The notes under the pieces: model-generated | The model's database searches: none | Told to the model about the DNA's origin: nothing | What the model saw: the letters and a program-made list of their open reading frames with translations, nothing else | Translations under genes and position numbers: made by a program | Source: Escherichia coli | GTDB taxonomy: Bacteria > Pseudomonadota > Gammaproteobacteria > Enterobacterales > Enterobacteriaceae | NCBI RefSeq assembly: GCF_030384885.1 | Contig: NZ_CP128613.1 | DNA: 64,000 bases | Reading direction: 5' to 3' (one strand) | Shown: positions 3,364 through 60,736 of the stretch, piece by piece | Layout: each line of letters opens with the position of its first letter | How positions within the stretch are numbered: position 1 is the stretch's first letter

Positions 3364-4356
3364 TTACAGCTCGCTCTCTTTGTGGAATCCGTCTTTAACT
3401 ACCGTATCTTTGATGTTGTTTTTATTCACATCGATCGGTGTCAGCAGGCGGGAGGGAACATCTTTCAGACCATTATTCAGTGTGGTATCTGCTTTTGGTT
3501 CCTGACCATTGCCCAACTCAACGGCAATTTCTGCGGCAGTATTTGCCAACAATGTAATAGGTTTATACACCGTCATAGTTTGCGTACCGGCAGCAATACG
3601 TTTAATACCTGCGAGATCCGCATCCTGGCCGGATATTGCTACTTTCCCTGATAAACCTTGCGCACTTAATGCCTGAATTGCCCCACCTGCGGTGGCATCG
3701 TTTGAGGCAACTACAGCATCAATTTTGTTATTATTGGCGGTTAGCGCGTTTTCCATAATTTTCAATGCGTTTTCCGGTAACCAGCCATCAACCCATTGGT
3801 CACCAACGACTTTAATTTTTCCGGAATCAACGTAAGGTTTTAACACTTTCATTTGTCCGGCGCGGAACAGCTTAGCGTTGTTATCTACCGGCGAACCGCC
3901 CATCAGGAAGTAATTACCTTGCGGAACAATATCGACCAGGGCTTTTGCCTGCAGTTCACCGACTTTTTCATTATCGAAAGAAATATAAAAATCGATATCC
4001 GCATCGTTAATCATACGGTCGTAAGCTAATACTTTAATACCTTCTTGTTTGGCTTCTTTTACAACGTTACTTAATACCTGACCGTTATACGGAATAATGA
4101 CAAGAACATCGACACCCCGGTTAATCATGTTTTCAATCTGCGACATTTGTGTTTCTTCATTGCCATTTGCAGACTGTACAAATACTTTCGCGCCGAGAGA
4201 TTCTGCCTTTTTCACAAAGATATCTCGATCTTTTTGCCAGCGTTCAAGACGGAGATCATCAATCGCCATACCTATTTTGACTTCTTTGGCGTGCGCCGCA
4301 ACGTTGGTAAGCAGAAGTGAGGTGCAAAGGGTGAGTAGAATGTTCTTTATTTTCAT
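3364..4356 (-). CDS. xylF: D-xylose periplasmic binding protein
   Basis: ORF 3364..4434; start placed at MKIKNILLTLCTSLL (signal peptide) giving 330 aa. Confidence 0.95.
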   Translation of the reverse strand: MKIKNILLTLCTSLLLTNVAAHAKEVKIGMAIDDLRLERWQKDRDIFVKKAESLGAKVFVQSANGNEETQMSQIENMINRGVDVLVIIPYNGQVLSNVVKEAKQEGIKVLAYDRMINDADIDFYISFDNEKVGELQAKALVDIVPQGNYFLMGGSPVDNNAKLFRAGQMKVLKPYVDSGKIKVVGDQWVDGWLPENALKIMENALTANNNKIDAVVASNDATAGGAIQALSAQGLSGKVAISGQDADLAGIKRIAAGTQTMTVYKPITLLANTAAEIAVELGNGQEPKADTTLNNGLKDVPSRLLTPIDVNKNNIKDTVVKDGFHKESEL

Positions 4357-4721: not shown

Positions 4722-6044
4722 ATGCAAGCCTATTTTGACCAGCTCGATCGCGTTCGTTATGAAGGCTCAAAATCCTCTAACCCGTTAGCATTCCGTCACT
4801 ACAATCCCGACGAACTGGTGTTGGGCAAGCGTATGGAAGAGCACTTGCGTTTTGCCGCCTGCTACTGGCACACCTTCTGCTGGAACGGGGCGGACATGTT
4901 TGGTGTGGGGGCGTTTAATCGTCCGTGGCAGCAGCCTGGTGAGGCACTGTCGTTGGCGAAGCGTAAAGCAGATGTCGCATTTGAGTTTTTCCACAAATTA
5001 CATGTGCCATTTTATTGCTTCCACGATGTGGATGTTTCCCCTGAGGGCGCGTCGTTAAAAGAGTACATCAATAATTTTGCGCAAATGGTTGATGTTCTGG
5101 CAGGCAAGCAAGAAGAGAGCGGCGTGAAGCTGCTGTGGGGAACCGCTAACTGCTTTACAAACCCTCGCTACGGCGCGGGCGCAGCGACGAACCCAGATCC
5201 TGAAGTCTTCAGTTGGGCGGCGACGCAAGTCGTTACGGCGATGGAAGCAACCCATAAATTGGGCGGTGAAAACTATGTTCTGTGGGGCGGTCGTGAAGGT
5301 TACGAAACGCTGTTAAATACCGACTTGCGTCAGGAGCGTGAACAACTGGGCCGCTTTATGCAGATGGTGGTTGAGCATAAACATAAAATCGGTTTCCAGG
5401 GCACGTTGCTTATCGAACCGAAACCGCAAGAACCGACCAAACATCAATATGATTACGATGCTGCGACAGTCTATGGCTTCCTGAAACAGTTTGGTCTGGA
5501 AAAAGAGATTAAACTGAACATTGAAGCTAACCACGCGACGCTGGCAGGTCACTCTTTCCATCATGAAATTGCCACCGCCATTGCGCTTGGCCTGTTCGGT
5601 TCTGTCGACGCCAACCGTGGCGATGCACAACTGGGCTGGGACACCGACCAGTTCCCGAACAGTGTGGAAGAGAATGCGCTGGTGATGTATGAAATTCTCA
5701 AAGCAGGCGGTTTCACCACCGGCGGTCTGAACTTCGATGCCAAAGTACGTCGTCAAAGTACTGATAAATATGATCTGTTTTACGGTCATATCGGTGCGAT
5801 GGATACGATGGCGTTGGCGCTGAAAATTGCAGCGCGCATGATTGAAGATGGCGAGCTGGATAAACGCATCGCGAAGCGTTATTCCGGCTGGAATAGCGAA
5901 TTAGGCCAGCAAATCCTGAAAGGCCAAATGTCACTGGCAGATTTAGCCAAATATGCTCAGGAACATAATTTGTCTCCGGTGCATCAGAGTGGTCGCCAGG
6001 AGCAACTGGAAAATCTGGTAAACCATTATCTGTTCGACAAATAA
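4722..6044 (+). CDS. xylA: Xylose isomerase
   Basis: ORF 4710..6044; start at second ATG ([17 protein letters not shown]...) with GGAG RBS 5 nt upstream; 440 aa. Confidence 0.97.
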
Positions 6045-13479: not shown

Positions 13480-13632
13480 ATGCCGCAGAAATATAGATTA
13501 CTTTCTTTAATAGTGATTTGTTGCACGCTTTTATTTTTCACCTGGATGATAAGAGATTCACTGTGTGAATTGCATATTAAACAGGGGAGTTATGAGCTGG
13601 CGGCATTTTTAGCCTGCAATTTGAAAGAGTAA
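13480..13632 (+). CDS. hokA: Hok-family type I toxin (50 aa), locus intact
   Basis: MPQKYRLLSLIVICCTLLFFTWMIRDSLCELHIKQGSYELAAFLACNLKE; in-frame upstream extension present in ORF track (mok-like leader region). Confidence 0.85.
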   Translation: MPQKYRLLSLIVICCTLLFFTWMIRDSLCELHIKQGSYELAAFLACNLKE

Positions 13633-34032: not shown

Positions 34033-34140
34033 ATGACGCTCGCAGAACTGGGCATGGCCTTCTGGCATGATTTAGCGGCTCCGGTCATTGCTGGCATTCT
34101 TGCCAGCATGATCGTGAACTGGCTGAATAAGCGGAAGTAA
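34033..34140 (+). CDS. ldrD: Ldr-family type I toxin peptide (35 aa), copy 1
   Basis: MTLAELGMAFWHDLAAPVIAGILASMIVNWLNKRK. Confidence 0.85.
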   Translation: MTLAELGMAFWHDLAAPVIAGILASMIVNWLNKRK

Positions 34141-34190
34141 CGTGTCAGACGGGCGTCAGGCTGCCGTAATGGCAATTTGCGCCCGGACCA

Positions 34191-34223
34191 GGCCGCAGGG
34201 ATAAAACTCTGCGGCCTTTTTCG
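34191..34223 (+). terminator. Rho-independent terminator after ldr copy 1
   Basis: ggccgcag-ggataaaact-ctgcggcc followed by T5. Confidence 0.5.
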
Positions 34224-34397
34224 TAAGAAAAATGCAACGGTTGCAAGCGGATAATATTCTGCGGAATGCGCAGCACAGAGTGAAGAAGTGATGGATTCCG
34301 GAACAGAAAAACAGTCGTAGAATCAGCGGCAAGCCGGAAGGGTTCCGGTGAGGCGCAATGTTGCGGGGGCTTAATCCCTGGTGGCATTGGTTGCTGG

Positions 34398-34467
34398 AGA
34401 GAGAAAACCCCCGCACGTTGCAGGTATGCACCTGACAACATCACGGGGGCTAATCTTGAACCCAAAC
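34398..34467 (-). ncRNA. Rdl-like antisense RNA (copy 2), approximate ends
   Basis: Duplicate of copy 1 offset by 483 bp with a few substitutions. Confidence 0.4.
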
Positions 34468-34515
34468 AACTCAAGAATAGCCGCGAAACGTTGTCATTAC
34501 AACAGAGGCGGCTAT

Positions 34516-34623
34516 ATGACGCTCGCAGAACTGGGCATGGCCTTCTGGCATGATTTAGCGGCTCCGGTCATTGCTGGCATTCTTGCCAGTCTGATCGTGA
34601 ACTCGCTGAATAAGCGGAAGTAA
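34516..34623 (+). CDS. Ldr-family type I toxin peptide (35 aa), copy 2 (variant)
   Basis: MTLAELGMAFWHDLAAPVIAGILASLIVNSLNKRK; differs from copy 1 at two positions (M26L, W30S). Confidence 0.8.
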   Translation: MTLAELGMAFWHDLAAPVIAGILASLIVNSLNKRK

Positions 34624-54157: not shown

Positions 54158-54360
54158 TAAATCACCCGGCAGCGTTTCTTCTGCGCTGCCGGGATTAACG
54201 GTAATAAATTAGTTACCGTGATATAACCGCAGATATTTTTCCTGGCACGGCGGTAGCGCGCAGATAACCATTCATTATTAAAATAAACTTACCGTAGAGT
54301 GGGTTTAATTATTTATTAGCTGAATAAATTATACCGGTGCCTCCTGGAAGGAGTGAGTTT

Positions 54361-54786
54361 ATGCTTGTGTTAAAATCACAATCGATTGGATTCAGGATTT
54401 CCACAGCTTATTTATCTTTAACATATACAGAGTCTGATGGCGTCAAGATTAAAGTAGATGCTCTGGAGTTAATATCAACAGAGAGAGATTATGTTCAAAT
54501 TGAACTGGTCTTCACTACTGTTGCTGAAGTTAAGTGTGCTACCGTCAATTTTTATGAAGCCAACTATAACAATATTGTTATTAAGAAGGTTGATGGTGAA
54601 AATCTGGACTCCGGTATATATCAAGTAATGAATTCTGTACCGCTTGAAGAAAAAGAGAAATTATATGATCCTAAAAAACGGTTGAAGTTAAAACATTATA
54701 TTATAGCAGGTTATGATAGTTATGTTGAGATTTTAGCTACTGGTTTTAGCTGTATACGATGCCAGGCAATAGATGGTGTTAAATAA
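54361..54786 (+). CDS. Hypothetical protein (141 aa), first gene of AT-rich accessory cassette; no signal peptide or TM segment
   Basis: ATG with AGGAG RBS 7 nt upstream; about 33 percent GC; stop overlaps next start (TAATG). Confidence 0.6.
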   Translation: MLVLKSQSIGFRISTAYLSLTYTESDGVKIKVDALELISTERDYVQIELVFTTVAEVKCATVNFYEANYNNIVIKKVDGENLDSGIYQVMNSVPLEEKEKLYDPKKRLKLKHYIIAGYDSYVEILATGFSCIRCQAIDGVK

Positions 54787-55040
54787 TGGCCTATCATATA
54801 GAAATATTGAAAATTGAAGAAACTGATAAAGTAGTAAAATATGAATTTGGACCTACATCTTCTGACTATTGTAGATCTGATTACGGCGAATTCGTGATAG
54901 ATAAAAGAACGGGTGAGATGACATTAGTCAGAATGGTTAAAAACGATTCAGCTAATAAATTTTATTTGCGAGCGAGTTTTAAGATTCTGACCTGTTGGCG
55001 AAAGGGCTATTTGCCAAAAAATGAGGAATGGGCTTCTTAA
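54786..55040 (+). CDS. Hypothetical small protein (84 aa), translationally coupled to upstream ORF
   Basis: ATG overlaps upstream stop by 1 nt; AT-rich; no recognisable motif. Confidence 0.55.
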   Translation: MAYHIEILKIEETDKVVKYEFGPTSSDYCRSDYGEFVIDKRTGEMTLVRMVKNDSANKFYLRASFKILTCWRKGYLPKNEEWAS

Positions 55041-55139
55041 TAAGTAACTTTGCAGAATAAGTGAATTTTCCCATTTTTTTGGGGGCAGTCGTTGATTCTT
55101 ACACAGTTTATGTTATGGGTGCCAAATTTAGGATAGGCT

Positions 55140-55619
55140 ATGGATTTTCACTTGGATATTTTGCTCCCTACACAATTCGCTCCAGAGGAACTAGATCTAC
55201 AAGAGGTTATGATTCACTGGGGTGGGGAAACCTTTCATCGCGACCCTCCGGTATACGCCTGGTGTAATCATCATCTTTTGCAGAGATGCAATCTACCGAT
55301 TACTTATGGCCCACCTTTAGATGAGCACATAGACTTTAATGAATATCATGTTTACAACTTCAATGGTTCTTTAGTCGATGACCTGGAAATGGCTGTGAAT
55401 AAAGGAAAGGATATTTCAACCAATCCTATAATTAAATTTATTAACAACCTGGTTAGCAAAAATTACGGGGGGTGGGTAATCTTGTCATTAGATGATGAAA
55501 AAATAGAAGTGATTAAAAATATAAGCTTCCAGTATTCTTTTCTATCATTATTAGTTGATGGACTAAAATGGGAAAGACCGCATGGGGTGGCAATATTATA
55601 TAATTCACACTTAATTTAA
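55140..55619 (+). CDS. Hypothetical protein (159 aa), cytoplasmic-type
   Basis: ATG with AGGATAGG RBS; AT-rich; no TM. Confidence 0.6.
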   Translation: MDFHLDILLPTQFAPEELDLQEVMIHWGGETFHRDPPVYAWCNHHLLQRCNLPITYGPPLDEHIDFNEYHVYNFNGSLVDDLEMAVNKGKDISTNPIIKFINNLVSKNYGGWVILSLDDEKIEVIKNISFQYSFLSLLVDGLKWERPHGVAILYNSHLI

Positions 55620-55640
55620 TTAATTAATGAATGGAAACAT

Positions 55641-55943
55641 ATGTATCGTGTAAAGGTTGTTTGGCTTACAGAAAATGAAGGTGGCAGAAGGAGCGCACCT
55701 CCTATCGGTAGATATTATCCCGTCTCCAGGTTTCCAGAGGAGAAAACTGACTGGCAAAATAATGCATGGAGTGTTGTTTTTGAATTGGAAAAACCTAATG
55801 TAACCGATGGACGTATCGTTTCAATGGGGTGCGTTCAGTTCCTTTTCGATACCGCCCCTGAACAATGGATGACTAAGTACGAGGCATTTGAGATCTACGA
55901 AGGACCAAGAAAAGTCGCAGATGTATTATTGATAGGGAATTAA
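55641..55943 (+). CDS. Hypothetical small protein (100 aa) with apparent similarity to the C-terminal beta-barrel (domain 3) of EF-Tu-type translational GTPases
   Basis: By-eye alignment to E. coli EF-Tu domain 3: VKVVWLTENEGGRR vs EVYILSKDEGGRH, RYYPV vs GYRPQ, C-terminal AFEIYEGPRKVADVLL vs RFAIREGGRTVGAGVV. Confidence 0.55.
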   Translation: MYRVKVVWLTENEGGRRSAPPIGRYYPVSRFPEEKTDWQNNAWSVVFELEKPNVTDGRIVSMGCVQFLFDTAPEQWMTKYEAFEIYEGPRKVADVLLIGN

Positions 55944-56004
55944 TTTTATTTATGTCAGGCTATTTAATTATATTTGCGACCTCAACGCATTTTCAGGAGT
56001 ATAA

Positions 56005-56538
56005 ATGCGTAACAAAAAACGCATACTATTCTTGCTAACAGTCATTTTTTGCTTAACAGGTCTTTATTCCTGCAACAAAAATTTTCTCTTACTCTGGGAT
56101 GCCAATAATATGTATGTCAGCACAAGAAATAATATCGATAAAGACAAGGTAAAAATAGAATTCGGTATCAGCGTCAACACGATCAACCGAGAAACGGATG
56201 CCGAATTATTTGCTGACAGAGATAAGTATGCAGTGCTCTTCGATGGTAGCCTGAAAAATAAGATGATAAGCGAATACGGAGAAAATGATTTTTTAATTAC
56301 CTACGATAACCGCTGCTATTTATCATTTCGTCAATTTAAAACAAATCGTCGTCATCAACATGACTATTATTTTGACTTCTTTAACAAGGATGGGAATGTC
56401 TTCGTCACGGTCGAAATTAAAGGTGAGAACCCGCTTAAATTTACGCGTAGTTTTAATGATATGCGTCAGCAGTTTTCACCATTCCGTAAGGGTAGCCCTT
56501 CTCACTCCTGCAAGGTTATTTCTTCAGATCCTTCTTAA
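56005..56538 (+). CDS. Hypothetical lipoprotein (177 aa)
   Basis: AGGAG RBS; N-terminus MRNKKRILFLLTVIFCLTGLYSC resembles lipoprotein signal peptide; 3' end overlaps convergent gene by 23 nt. Confidence 0.6.
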   Translation: MRNKKRILFLLTVIFCLTGLYSCNKNFLLLWDANNMYVSTRNNIDKDKVKIEFGISVNTINRETDAELFADRDKYAVLFDGSLKNKMISEYGENDFLITYDNRCYLSFRQFKTNRRHQHDYYFDFFNKDGNVFVTVEIKGENPLKFTRSFNDMRQQFSPFRKGSPSHSCKVISSDPS

Positions 56539-58510
56539 ACACTGGTTCTGGACAATCACGACCAAAATGCGCCGCCCAGTCAAAAGATTTACCGTTTTTC
56601 ACGTAGCGTTGATAAATTAATGCACCGGTTTCTGGATCAAGATATCTGATCCAACTTGCAGCATGGCATAACACGGCAGCCCAAGCCTGGGTTTTAGGGT
56701 GAAGTAAATCGGCTGATTGTCCGGCCCATTCCGCAGCCTGCCAGCGGTAATGCAAAAAATGCTCATCAACAGTGGGGATTGCGTGGCGGAAACGTTGTTT
56801 TTCTTTACGACTTATCCACTGATCGTTATTGCTGTATTCAAAGGGTTCTGAATACTGCCCGCTGGTAATGGCATAATCGGGATACATTTCATAAGCCGCC
56901 AATTCGATACCACTGAAACGCAAAAGCCGCGCAGCTTCGTATTGCGCCTGGGCGCGTTGCTTATCAGGGATGTTTTTATTTTTTGCTATCGCCATTAAAT
57001 CAGCCAGTTTTTGTGCGGCCTGGCGATAATTGGGAATATCAAACCAATTGATGGCCTGCTGGTACTGGCCATGACGAATTAATCGTCTACCCAATAACGC
57101 CCGTAATTTAACATCCGTTGGAATGATATCTGGCGAAAGATAATAACCGTCATTGTTATTATTTAAATCTACAGGTTTTAAAGGGTGCTGAGGTACCGGT
57201 ACGTTTTTTTCAACAAACGCCTGTAACTCCGGTAAGGTCAAAACGTTTTCTGCAACCCAGGCTAAATCGGCCCAATAGAGATCTTTGGCCTGGTAAAACA
57301 ATGCGGTGGCCTGAAGATAATCATCGCGTTTTAATGCCAAAATCGCCTGCTCACTGGCAATACGGCAAGATGGGATAATAACTTTATCTCCATGATAATA
57401 AGGACTTTCCGGGTCCATACTTCCCCACACTTCATCGGTCGGGAACATCGGGGCTGCGCGAGCATAGTGACGCGTTGCCAGTGGAATATCTCCGGCTCGT
57501 AATGCCATTTTTGCTTTTAACCATTCGCTTAATCCACTTTCTGGCGCATCCTGCAACAGCGTTTGTGCTAACGAATAATTTCCTGCCCGATACGCCAGTG
57601 CTGCCAGGCGATCGCTATAACTAAATCCTTTAACTCTGTGTTGACTTAGCAACTTAATTAAACGGTCGCGATGCGTTGGACAGGTATAATCTACAAGGTC
57701 CTTAGTACAGGCTTCGCTAACATACCCCCAGTCATGACGAATAAAGAGCTCTGCGATTACCAGTTGCTGAACCAGAGAATCATTAATAACCGACTCCAGC
57801 AGTGGTAAATTTTTCTCCCTGGTTATATACAGCGAAATCATCCGTAGCGACGCTTTCCCGGAGGGCGAACCCTGGGCCGCTTGCCGGGCATACATTTTTA
57901 CTGCCGCAGCGACATCACCTTTTTTCAGATAATAATGCCCAATCTGACCGAGACTGGCGAGAGAGAGCAATTCAGGATCGGCTGCGCCATTACGCACTTC
58001 TTCAATGATTTGCTGATAACGCTGTATGGCCTGCTCAGCAAGTTCCTGATTAAAGCCACCTTTATTGATTATAAGATCGAGATCGTCGTCAGAGGCATCA
58101 AATCCCCCCCTTGCCAGACTATATAGCGCAGCCAGCCGCCATTCTCCTTGCTCTGTTTTCGGCAAGGCTAATAATTGCTGAAAGTATGGGCTATCGTATT
58201 TTCCCTGATGGAAATCCTTAGCTCCTGAATAATAAAGTTCCAGTGCCCGATTTTGCACAGGAGGTTCAGCATCTGTATCTGTCTGCGTTGCCTCTTCAGG
58301 CGTATTTTCTTGCCATACTGGTAAACCAGGATCGCGTTTAACCAACTGTTGTACTTCAAAGACAAAACTGCCATTTGGCATTTCCAGCAGTGCGCTATTG
58401 CGGTCAGTTAACAGATGATTGGGAATAAATGGTCCACAGGCATTAACGTTGGCGCTAATTAGCGAGAGAAATACAACAACGGAAAGCCGCGATATTTTAG
58501 GGGATAACAT
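56516..58510 (-). CDS. Hypothetical large lipoprotein (664 aa) with helical repeat (TPR/Sel1-like) character
   Basis: ORF 56516..58735; start placed at ATG 58510 (MLSPKISRLSVVVFLSLISANVNAC, lipobox) with AGGAGAG RBS; near-native GC; start overlaps upstream gene stop by 14 nt. Confidence 0.75.
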   Translation of the reverse strand: MLSPKISRLSVVVFLSLISANVNACGPFIPNHLLTDRNSALLEMPNGSFVFEVQQLVKRDPGLPVWQENTPEEATQTDTDAEPPVQNRALELYYSGAKDFHQGKYDSPYFQQLLALPKTEQGEWRLAALYSLARGGFDASDDDLDLIINKGGFNQELAEQAIQRYQQIIEEVRNGAADPELLSLASLGQIGHYYLKKGDVAAAVKMYARQAAQGSPSGKASLRMISLYITREKNLPLLESVINDSLVQQLVIAELFIRHDWGYVSEACTKDLVDYTCPTHRDRLIKLLSQHRVKGFSYSDRLAALAYRAGNYSLAQTLLQDAPESGLSEWLKAKMALRAGDIPLATRHYARAAPMFPTDEVWGSMDPESPYYHGDKVIIPSCRIASEQAILALKRDDYLQATALFYQAKDLYWADLAWVAENVLTLPELQAFVEKNVPVPQHPLKPVDLNNNNDGYYLSPDIIPTDVKLRALLGRRLIRHGQYQQAINWFDIPNYRQAAQKLADLMAIAKNKNIPDKQRAQAQYEAARLLRFSGIELAAYEMYPDYAITSGQYSEPFEYSNNDQWISRKEKQRFRHAIPTVDEHFLHYRWQAAEWAGQSADLLHPKTQAWAAVLCHAASWIRYLDPETGALIYQRYVKNGKSFDWAAHFGRDCPEPVFKKDLKK

Positions 58511-59705
58511 TGAACTCTCCTTGTAAATTTGGGGTGCATCGCGCCCATCCCAGCGCACTGCTTTCACCAGCACGCAACTGCCTGGTACTGATGCGAATAA
58601 AACGTAACGAGGATGCGTTGGTTTGTGCCTGATAATGGCCTGCGCCATCAGCATATGTGCATTGAGCAGCAGGCAGCTCGATCTGTTGTGGCAATGGCGC
58701 GTCAATATCACCATTGTTTTTAATGGCCAAATCAATAAGTTGCTTGTCAGCCTGTGGCGAAATTATCAAAGACCAGCGCGGCGTCAAAGGTTTATGGTGA
58801 ATAACGGCATCTAAAGTAGACAGGGACCAGGCGCGGCGATCATTTGCCAGCGGGAGTCGGAACCAGATAAATCCCTGTAACCCTGAGGGCGGTTTTTGTT
58901 CCAGCTGTTGGGTAAAATCAGCCAACGTTTGTGGCGCCACACTCAGCTCCCGCAACTCTTGTGCAATATACAGTGGGGCTTCGCTTTCAATACGGTTATC
59001 GCGCGTCAGCGCAGAACCGTAAGCCGGCAGAGCGATGTAAAAAGGATGGGGAGAAATACGTGCATATTGCGTGCTCCAGCGCTTAGCCAGTTTACTGTCG
59101 AATAATCCCTGTTGCGGCGATAACACCGTATGCACCTGCAAAACAGAAATATCGGCGTCAGCCAGCAGCGCAGGCAGATGTGGTGAATTCAGCCAGTCAG
59201 GTAATGCAGTAATACTGAGTTTTAATTCTGCAGGAAGATTCTGGCGCAATGTCCTTAGCAACTGTTGGTATTCCACCAGTTTTGCCGTTGGCGCATCGAA
59301 ATCAATTTCAATGCCAGCCAGCTTAATACCCGCCTCTTTCCACTCATTCATTGTTCGTACAATGTTCTGCACAACATTTTGTTGATTAATATGAGAGAGC
59401 TTACCGTCCAGTCGCGCAACCAGCCAGACGGGGCGATCATCTTGTTTTATAAATGTTTTATTAACGGCGGTGTAGCGTATACCTTCCTGAGGATGAACTT
59501 GTAGCTCCAGAATGCGTAGCGTTGAGAACAGATTACGGCTCTGTTTTAGTGCGTGCTCATGTTGCGCGGTCCACAAACGCTGCCAGATATAGACTTGTTG
59601 ATCGAGGGGGCGTGTTTTTTGCGGCATAAGCCGGGTCAGCAGCCCATATCCAGAGCCGATAAAAACGATGAGTGAAATGGCAAAAATCCATTTGCGAGAG
59701 GGCAT
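58497..59705 (-). CDS. Hypothetical membrane-anchored periplasmic protein (402 aa); alternating beta-strand/helix pattern and GIEIDFD motif suggest a TIM-barrel glycosidase-like fold (inference)
   Basis: N-terminal TM helix IFAISLIVFIGSGYGLL; motifs VWLVARLDG, AGIKLAGIEIDFDAP, ISVLQVHTV; translationally coupled to downstream lipoprotein gene. Confidence 0.75.
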   Translation of the reverse strand: MPSRKWIFAISLIVFIGSGYGLLTRLMPQKTRPLDQQVYIWQRLWTAQHEHALKQSRNLFSTLRILELQVHPQEGIRYTAVNKTFIKQDDRPVWLVARLDGKLSHINQQNVVQNIVRTMNEWKEAGIKLAGIEIDFDAPTAKLVEYQQLLRTLRQNLPAELKLSITALPDWLNSPHLPALLADADISVLQVHTVLSPQQGLFDSKLAKRWSTQYARISPHPFYIALPAYGSALTRDNRIESEAPLYIAQELRELSVAPQTLADFTQQLEQKPPSGLQGFIWFRLPLANDRRAWSLSTLDAVIHHKPLTPRWSLIISPQADKQLIDLAIKNNGDIDAPLPQQIELPAAQCTYADGAGHYQAQTNASSLRFIRISTRQLRAGESSALGWARCTPNLQGEFNVIP

Positions 59706-59758
59706 TTGAACCCGGAATCCATGTGGTCAATAACAGAAAGTATACTGCGGAACTATTT

Positions 59759-59790
59759 AGCGGAGAAATTATTCCATTAATTTCTCCGCT
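59759..59790. terminator. Perfect 13-bp-arm hairpin between kdgK stop and the downstream operon (candidate terminator/attenuator)
   Basis: agcggagaaatta-ttccat-taatttctccgct; no canonical U-tract on the kdgK transcript side. Confidence 0.4.
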
Positions 59791-59806
59791 ATGATTGATG
59801 TGTTAT

Positions 59807-60736
59807 TTACTGAGGCATGGCTTCGCGAGGAATAATCGCGCCGCGATACTGAATAACGGTACTTGCGGTCAGGTGCCCGCGTTTCGCCGCATTTTCCGCA
59901 CTGGCGCCCGTCAAACGTACCGCCAGATAACCGGCACTGAAAGAGTCGCCAGCTGCAGTGGTATCGATCACTTTTTCTTTTGGCAGTTTCACCGCCGGAA
60001 CATCCACTAACCCCTCGCCAGCAATGGACACCAGGCAAGAATCCGCCCCGCGTTTCACCACCACTTCTTTCACGCCCGCGTTATGGGTGCGCGCAATGAC
60101 GTCTTCCACCGGTTGTTGACCCCACAGCGCGTCTTCGTCGTCCAGCGTCAGGAAGGCGATATCCGTGCATTCCAGCATTTGCTGGTACATCTGCTGTGTC
60201 TCTTCTTTGCTGGCCCACAAGCGCGGACGGTAGTTATTGTCGAAAATCACTTTTCCACCGTTAGTGCGGCATTCGCGCAGCAGGGAAAGCAGCTTTTCGC
60301 GGCTGGTCGGGCTTAAGATTGCCAGGCTAATCCCGCTCAGGTAGAGATAATCAAAATTCGCCAGCTCTGCACAAATCGCTGCGGATTGCTCACTCTCCAG
60401 CCAAAATTTGGCGGCGGCTTCGTTACGCCAGTAGTAGAACGTACGTTCGCCAGTGCTGTCGGTTTCAATGTAGTAAAGACCCGGCAGACGGTTTTCCATC
60501 CGCTGGGTCAGGGAAGTATCAACGTTCTCGCCGTGCCAGGCGTCCAGCATCTGCTGACTAAAACTGTCCGTTCCCAGCGCCGTCACGTAATGAACGGTTA
60601 ATGCCGCAGGATCGACCTGACGGGCGATATAGACGGAAGTGTTCAGGGTATCGCCGCCGAAACCGCGCTTAACGTCCGCGCCTTTCTCGGAAAGCTCAAT
60701 CATGCATTCGCCAATCACGGCAATCTTTTTGGACAT
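59807..60736 (-). CDS. kdgK: 2-dehydro-3-deoxygluconokinase
   Basis: 309 aa; MSKKIAVIGECMIELSEKGADVKRGFGGDTLNTSVYIARQV; PfkB family. Confidence 0.95.
   Translation of the reverse strand: MSKKIAVIGECMIELSEKGADVKRGFGGDTLNTSVYIARQVDPAALTVHYVTALGTDSFSQQMLDAWHGENVDTSLTQRMENRLPGLYYIETDSTGERTFYYWRNEAAAKFWLESEQSAAICAELANFDYLYLSGISLAILSPTSREKLLSLLRECRTNGGKVIFDNNYRPRLWASKEETQQMYQQMLECTDIAFLTLDDEDALWGQQPVEDVIARTHNAGVKEVVVKRGADSCLVSIAGEGLVDVPAVKLPKEKVIDTTAAGDSFSAGYLAVRLTGASAENAAKRGHLTASTVIQYRGAIIPREAMPQ

Follow-up and report, generated by a model that had tools for sequence, protein, structure and literature searches.

The 64,000-nucleotide stretch of Escherichia coli 2013C-4282 analysed here (contig NZ_CP128613.1; hereafter the window) carries, between yhjJ and kdgK, a strain-variable island that begins with five small plus-strand genes, A-E. 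The first two open reading frames (ORFs), ORF A (54361..54786, plus strand; 141 amino acids, aa) and ORF B (54786..55040, plus strand; 84 aa), are the subject of this study. ORF A belongs to an unnamed family of about 130-150 aa and ORF B to an unnamed family restricted to Enterobacteriaceae, and both are predicted to be orphan immunity proteins, ORF B of the RhsI type. They meet in a TAATG stop/start overlap (54784..54788, plus strand) in which base 54786 is shared: the 3' end of ORF A reads GGT GTT AAA TAA (54775-54786), and ORF B starts with ATG GCC TAT (54786-54794). This overlap had been reported in a preliminary description of the locus, and it was confirmed by our reading of the sequence, by comparison of the junction with homologous loci and by the PGAP (NCBI) annotation of the source genome, which contains the identical two coding sequences, WP_000960685.1 (A) and WP_000323301.1 (B), both labelled 'hypothetical protein'. 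The preliminary description had further taken the overlap as typical of stoichiometric partners such as toxin and antitoxin, effector and immunity protein, or enzyme and chaperone.

ORF A is preceded by a strong Shine-Dalgarno (SD) sequence, GGAAGGAG (54346..54353, plus strand), read in the sequence 7 nt before its ATG, while ORF B has a weak SD-like GGTG 7 nt upstream, at which place its Rhs-linked homologs carry GGGAG. The start of ORF B is secure, since residues M1 A2 Y3 H4 I5 are invariant in 10/10 aligned homologs. The maximum of the 19-residue Kyte-Doolittle mean was 1.17 for A and 0.11 for B, so that neither protein contains a stretch of transmembrane or signal peptide grade, as had been stated before, and both are cytoplasmic. 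Values of dN/dS were 0.08-0.14 for B and 0.25-0.31 for A, and a comparison of the window with its closest variant island (locus L016), both of which are toxin-less, gave 0.10 for B and 0.31 for A. Both ORFs are genuine protein-coding genes on which purifying selection acts, and the fact that this includes toxin-less variants argues that both are maintained. The AlphaFold2 (AF2) model of ORF A is confident and has as its top match PIM7, a solved polymorphic-toxin immunity protein; that of ORF B has a pLDDT of 86, its fold matches being generic. ORF A had no Pfam match to Imm50 (PF15594) even at E<=10, and its sole link to that family is one Imm50-annotated model in AFDB that it weakly resembles in structure (E 2e-6, TMq 0.55).

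Stop/start overlaps are frequent elsewhere in the window. Among its annotated same-strand neighbours we counted five 4-nt overlaps (yiaC/tag, dppD/dppF, bcsG/bcsF, bcsF/bcsE and bcsQ/bcsA) as well as three longer ones, with yiaC/tag as an example of a functionally unrelated pair. Since overlaps are thus common among unrelated operon neighbours, an overlap alone is uninformative on stoichiometric partnership.

Relatives of ORF B and ORF A

The ORF B family is rare, comprising 14 clusters among 5.8 billion proteins, and in a scan of 100,044 species (one genome each) it was found in just three loci, one of them being a contig from a metagenome-assembled genome named 'Collinsella sp.' (L022, JAIJJM010000440.1). 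The contig (2.76 kb) codes for all of A-E, the proteins being 89-100% identical to those of E. coli; it is almost certainly E. coli DNA that was mis-binned. In Citrobacter youngae ATCC 29220 (L023), an ORF of at least 1298 aa with YD repeats and a match to Rhs_assc_core (NCBIfam, 81 bits, cutoff 32.5) ends with ...NPLKYIDPLGL followed by about 128 residues, and a 68%-identical B homolog begins 3 nt past its stop codon (Rhs ends at 3997, the B homolog starts at 4001). RhsI immunity genes canonically lie directly downstream of rhs (Poole et al., 2011; PMC3150448), and the B homolog of C. youngae occupies exactly this slot. The same type of C-terminal domain is found as an orphan fragment 3 nt upstream of B homologs in C. 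werkmanii, Salmonella enterica and the enteric loci L009-12, the homologs of Citrobacter and Salmonella being 65-68% identical to ORF B; the S. enterica locus moreover adjoins another Rhs C-terminal domain (Rhs-CT), an Imm9 gene and symE. A 58%-identical homolog is one of the small same-strand genes of a metagenomic array (L008), together with Colicin_immun and Cys_rich_CPCC. DNA resembling the cognate toxin of B, that is, the toxin-coding part of the Citrobacter module, was found in none of 5426 complete E. coli genomes, while the adjoining B part matched 172 of them, once each.

The ORF A family comprises 12 clusters among 5.8 billion proteins, and a profile search recovered 91 representatives among 1.84 billion. 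In Photorhabdus namnaonensis the gene order is DcrB, PAAR, a 1186-aa Rhs, a 133-aa gene, a 153-aa ORF and, 12 nt on, an A homolog, and in Xenorhabdus poinarii a 187-aa counterpart of the 153-aa ORF is followed after 8 nt by an A homolog (the upstream ORF ends at 5988 and the homolog starts at 6001 in L025; the corresponding positions are 5992 and 6001 in L026). These homologs are 43-45% identical to ORF A. The ORFs in front of them are orphan Rhs fragments, which contain ...YYNRFRYYNPQTGQY...NPTNFIDPYGL plus about 140 residues and match Rhs_assc_core (59.5 bits vs a cutoff of 32.5, E=3e-16). The match to the Rhs core and the spacing of 8-12 nt indicate that A, too, takes the position of an RhsI gene, after a different toxin domain than B, and a Rhs C-terminal toxin of the Photorhabdus/Xenorhabdus type is therefore its predicted cognate. 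These A-linked Rhs-CTs are known from orphan fragments only, no full-length Rhs with such a C-terminal domain having been retrieved. In other genomes, an A homolog closes an array of the order Rhs-195-99-131-A, in which it overlaps an unrelated 131-aa gene by 4 nt (L029-31), follows a Toxin-deaminase protein and its 117-aa neighbour (L027), or stands alone (Paenibacillus-type genomes). In a metagenomic protein of 238 aa (P0047), the A-family domain is fused to a further domain of about 100 aa at the C-terminus, an arrangement that recalls 'polyimmunity proteins'; this further domain was not similar to ORF D when the two were compared.

In Pfam, proteins A-E and the Citrobacter-type Rhs-CT gave no match except a meaningless one of Staphopain_pro to E (E 0.011), and nothing significant was obtained for A-E in NCBIfam, PADLOC or PHROGs, nor did any of the five match a toxin family. 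A sequence search of the PDB with A, B and both toxin domains returned chance-level matches only; beyond the Rhs core, the two toxin domains (L023 3610-3997, …LLRHEQFESRFEGIFGTDYRVAHDAAERSGRVWE; L026 5429-5992, SSFDPFIHGDITDFPKDLHFGQNRIAPNF…) had no NCBIfam or PDB sequence match. Neither of the immunity families and neither of the toxin domains has a name in Pfam or NCBIfam, the Pfam scan of toxin domains having covered the L023 domain only. Two other readings of the island, anti-phage defence and a prophage origin, were rejected as no PADLOC match and no PHROG match, respectively, was found.

Outside the island lineage, homologs of A and B assort independently and never occur together in 13 distinct contexts. 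By tblastn, B was found without A in six of these (C. youngae, C. werkmanii, Salmonella, L009-12, the metagenome array L008 and E. coli GF4-3) and A without B in seven informative ones (Photorhabdus, Xenorhabdus, L027/28, L029-31, two Firmicute-type loci and the E. coli/Shigella loci L013-15). Where the context reveals a partner, A and B each have their own, these being different Rhs C-terminal toxins. The preliminary description had itself named the occurrence of ORF B homologs independently of ORF A homologs as grounds for giving up the partner hypothesis, which is hereby largely refuted: effector and immunity protein was the right general setting, but A and B are most likely not each other's partners.

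It is therefore very improbable that A and B form a cognate pair, be it a type II toxin-antitoxin, effector-immunity or enzyme-chaperone pair, with the overlap fixing their ratio. A pair of this kind would fit the 1-nt overlap and the weak SD of B, the presence of both genes in 171 of the 172 E. coli genomes and in L016, and the condition of E. coli GF4-3, which has lost A and carries a frameshifted B, as expected if A neutralised a toxic B. However, B is intact without A in two Citrobacter species, Salmonella, L009-12 and L008, A does without B in its seven contexts, the families sit in the immunity slots of a full-length Rhs (B) and of another Rhs-CT (A), and the overlap is not conserved. 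A type II toxin-antitoxin pair was rejected in particular, since co-occurrence fails and neither A nor B matches a toxin-antitoxin or HTH family (Pfam, NCBIfam). The variant in which A is a Rhs toxin and B its immunity protein was rejected as well: A has no Rhs-core or DPxGL leader and is unlike the Rhs-CT that precedes B homologs (tblastn), and having an SD and ATG of its own without the end of a Rhs core, it does not qualify as the toxin part of an Rhs-CT/RhsI module.

Scarcely more probable is a cooperation in which two immunity proteins, or an immunity protein and a helper, are jointly needed against one incoming toxin. The tight linkage and possibly coupled translation in the E. coli island lineage would be consistent with it, and there is a precedent in Bacteroides, where one toxin is reported to be neutralised by a pair of cognate immunity proteins (PMC11699363), but each family occurs alone directly after a different toxin domain, and no locus combines a toxin with both A and B.

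In our opinion, A and B are quite likely two independent orphan RhsI-type immunity genes that head a small polyimmunity island, and judging from the genes next to their homologs they would confer immunity against different Rhs toxins of other bacteria.

Origin of the overlap

In L016 the canonical MAYHIEI start of B lies 2 nt past the stop of A, and in Citrobacter and Salmonella it lies 3 nt past the Rhs stop. These gaps of 2 and 3 nt in relatives demonstrate that the 1-nt overlap is not conserved but specific to this island allele. When the window was aligned with the Rhs-linked B loci, homology began only ~10 nt 5' of the ATG (TAAAT[T/A]ATGGC); over a longer comparison with the 3' end of the Rhs-CT, 16/24 positions were identical, but without the last 10 nt the count fell to an insignificant 7/14. 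On the other side of the junction, the conserved part of A stops near residue 133, and the tails beyond it vary by island variant (QAIDGVK, QGIKAD, GN). We infer from this that the overlap results from where the variable tail of A terminates within the leader of a captured B cassette. The cassette would have been joined to the non-conserved 3' tail of A, leaving TAATG as a by-product of operon compaction at the cassette junction. The overlap is no sign of an A-B complex. Translational coupling from A to B is plausible, given the overlap and the weak SD as its sequence precondition, and ribosomes finishing A might then re-initiate on B.

The yhjJ-kdgK island and its variants

The island (54159..59813, no strand assigned) replaces the yhjJ-kdgK spacer of K-12, homology to which ends at 54158 and restarts at 59814, so that the convergent genes yhjJ and kdgK, 95 bp apart in K-12, are 5.65 kb apart in the window. 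Its first 2.4 kb (roughly 54200-56600) are low in GC (33-40% vs about 52% in the flanks) and consist of genes A, B, C, D and E, with gaps of -1, 99, 21 and 61 nt between them. The 99-nt spacer between B and C (55041..55139, plus strand) still contains the first bases of a gene of the TriTu family, retained up to ...atgttatgggtgc, and as this gene is intact at the same place in E. coli GF4-3, the spacer seems to be the scar that deletion of such an immunity gene has left behind. Experiments have proven that TriTu confers immunity to TreTu, an Rhs toxin of Salmonella (PMC9825190). ORF C (55140..55619, plus strand; 159 aa) is an array member without a family match, and ORF D (55641..55943, plus strand; 100 aa) belongs to a rare family also seen in Citrobacter and Serratia. 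ORF E (56005..56538, plus strand; 177 aa) begins with MRNKKRILFLLTVIFCLTGLYSC, a signal-peptide-like hydrophobic stretch that ends in Cys (…LTGLYSC), which makes it a probable lipoprotein; it could be an immunity protein facing the periplasm.

The content of the array varies among the window, E. coli 042, GF4-3, L013-15 and L016, and K-12 has no island. E. coli 042 has only 54159-56475 in common with the window, the 3' end of ORF E differing between the two as homology stops at 56475. Downstream of A and B, L016 carries two genes for proteins of 150 and 109 aa, a TriTu (PF24689) gene, D-like and E-like genes and then further ones. In GF4-3, A has been cleanly deleted and B is frameshifted at the C-terminus; the TriTu gene, C, D and E follow. 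In this strain (L033 5950-6301) the deletion junction joins …gaataaatt to gccagga… and leaves only the last ~24 nt of A, a 1-nt indel in B replaces the invariant C-terminus EEWAS, and PGAP, which does not annotate this B, names the TriTu gene (L033 6315/6363-6611) 'immunity protein TriTu family protein'. The loci L013-15 (E. coli/Shigella, at the same yhjJ site) carry A, then an unrelated gene of 76-91 aa, H-repeat-associated transposase fragments and DUF6708.

The A-B segment occurs in 172/5426 complete E. coli genomes (~3%, 042 included), always on the chromosome and in a single copy. In a plasmid collection, the sole A-B match was NZ_CP141089.1, a 4.94-Mb E. coli record and evidently a chromosome filed as a plasmid.

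A further reading is that A and B are decaying, functionless remnants of a former Rhs locus, with the overlap an accident of deletion. The island has no toxin, a TriTu deletion scar lies between B and C, A is deleted and B frameshifted in GF4-3, and 97% of E. coli lack the island altogether, all of which would fit such a history. On the other hand, 171 genomes carry intact copies of both ORFs (98% identity), dN/dS is 0.08-0.31 with toxin-less variants included, A has a strong SD and both AF2 models are confident. We therefore regard decay as very unlikely, if slightly less so than cooperation against one toxin.

A six-frame scan of 54159-56620 revealed no DPxGL, PxxxxDPxG, VENN or Rhs motif, and within the window neither a recombinase next to the array nor mobile-element machinery was seen. 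A scan of the island for promoters and terminators found sites no more numerous than in shuffled sequence. Just past the yhjJ stop, at 54165-54193, lies a GC-rich inverted repeat (cccggcagcg…cgctgccggg) that is island-specific and conserved in GF4-3; it lacks a T-run and was not among the terminators called. Two overlapping minus-strand genes (56516-59705) form the right half of the island; they encode a TPR-like protein of 664-739 aa and a 402-aa DUF3142 protein and are both present in GF4-3 and absent from 042. Elsewhere in the window, two Ldr-family type I toxin genes and hokA were noted (34033-34623 and 13480-13632), which are unrelated to A and B.

Possible function and comparison with known systems

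If A and B are orphan immunity genes, the order A, B, scar of a TriTu-family gene, C, D, E would represent the cassettes of a heterogeneous polyimmunity locus. The array may be transcribed as a single message from upstream of A, and each small cytoplasmic protein could then bind and block one toxin domain injected by a competitor via type VI secretion. The toxins concerned would not be made by the carrier cell, and protection would thus be directed against foreign toxins. Going further, one might suggest, though we would put this at somewhat short of even, that the island functions as an 'acquired interbacterial defence' array free of toxins, with at least two unnamed immunity families, which protects E. 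coli in the gut from Rhs toxins that it does not encode (of the Citrobacter/Salmonella type for B and of the Photorhabdus/Xenorhabdus type for A), with the overlap serving to express a promoter-less, weak-SD cassette by re-initiation.

These results offer a candidate function for two families of 'hypothetical protein' (WP_000960685 and WP_000323301) and for two unnamed Rhs toxin domains, and they show that ~3% of E. coli, among them the enteroaggregative reference strain 042, have a small putative immunity island, always at the same fixed site of the chromosome. The collecting of immunity genes without toxins has been described mainly in Bacteroidales and Vibrio; if the proposed protection is true, the island would be an E. 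coli example of such defence against type VI/Rhs toxins. As a point of method, a stop/start overlap says little on whether two proteins are partners, and it is the comparison of neighbourhoods that decides.

Heterogeneous polyimmunity loci consist of genes in the same orientation with short spacers, are uninterrupted by toxins and vary from strain to strain; an extended locus has four or more tandem genes, and pre-emptive protection against the toxins of non-kin has been proposed as their role (Zhang, de Souza, Anantharaman, Iyer and Aravind, 2012, Biol Direct 7:18; PMC3482391). The island corresponds to this description in that small, unrelated genes stand in tandem on the same strand, tightly spaced and without a toxin cassette among them, and in that gene number and type vary among E. 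coli strains. A further feature of such loci, members with relatives adjacent to toxins, is seen from genomic context for A, B and the TriTu gene of sister islands. It differs in that toxin-linked relatives were found only for A, B and the TriTu remnant and not for C, D and E, in that the five proteins match no named Imm family in Pfam, and in that the array is short (five genes) and has no recombinase adjacent to it.

A second comparison is with Rhs-CT/RhsI modules, which occur as orphans in arrays downstream of the main rhs gene (Poole et al., 2011, PMC3150448; Koskiniemi et al., 2014, PMC3967940). As in such modules (see also PMC9825190), homologs of A and B lie a few nt past a Rhs C-terminal domain that follows PxxxxDPxGL. 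In contrast, the window contains no rhs gene, Rhs-CT fragment or DPxGL motif, and A is not the toxin of B; the predicted immunity genes are here parted from their toxins and located at an unrelated chromosomal site.

Toxin-free sets of immunity genes against effectors that the carrier does not encode, strain-variable and horizontally acquired, form a third kind of known system. Acquired interbacterial defence (AID) clusters in Bacteroidales and orphan type VI secretion system immunity arrays in Vibrio were reportedly described by Ross and co-workers in Nature in 2019 and by Kirchberger and co-workers in 2017. The island departs from them in that no mobile-element or recombinase machinery was seen and in that the predicted cognate toxins are of the Rhs type and come from other Enterobacterales. 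It resembles them in being toxin-free, strain-variable and, with its low GC, probably horizontally acquired. The junction of A and B itself, finally, is like that of coupled overlapping operon pairs (ATGA or TAATG), in which one base belongs to both the stop and the start and the SD of the second gene is weak.
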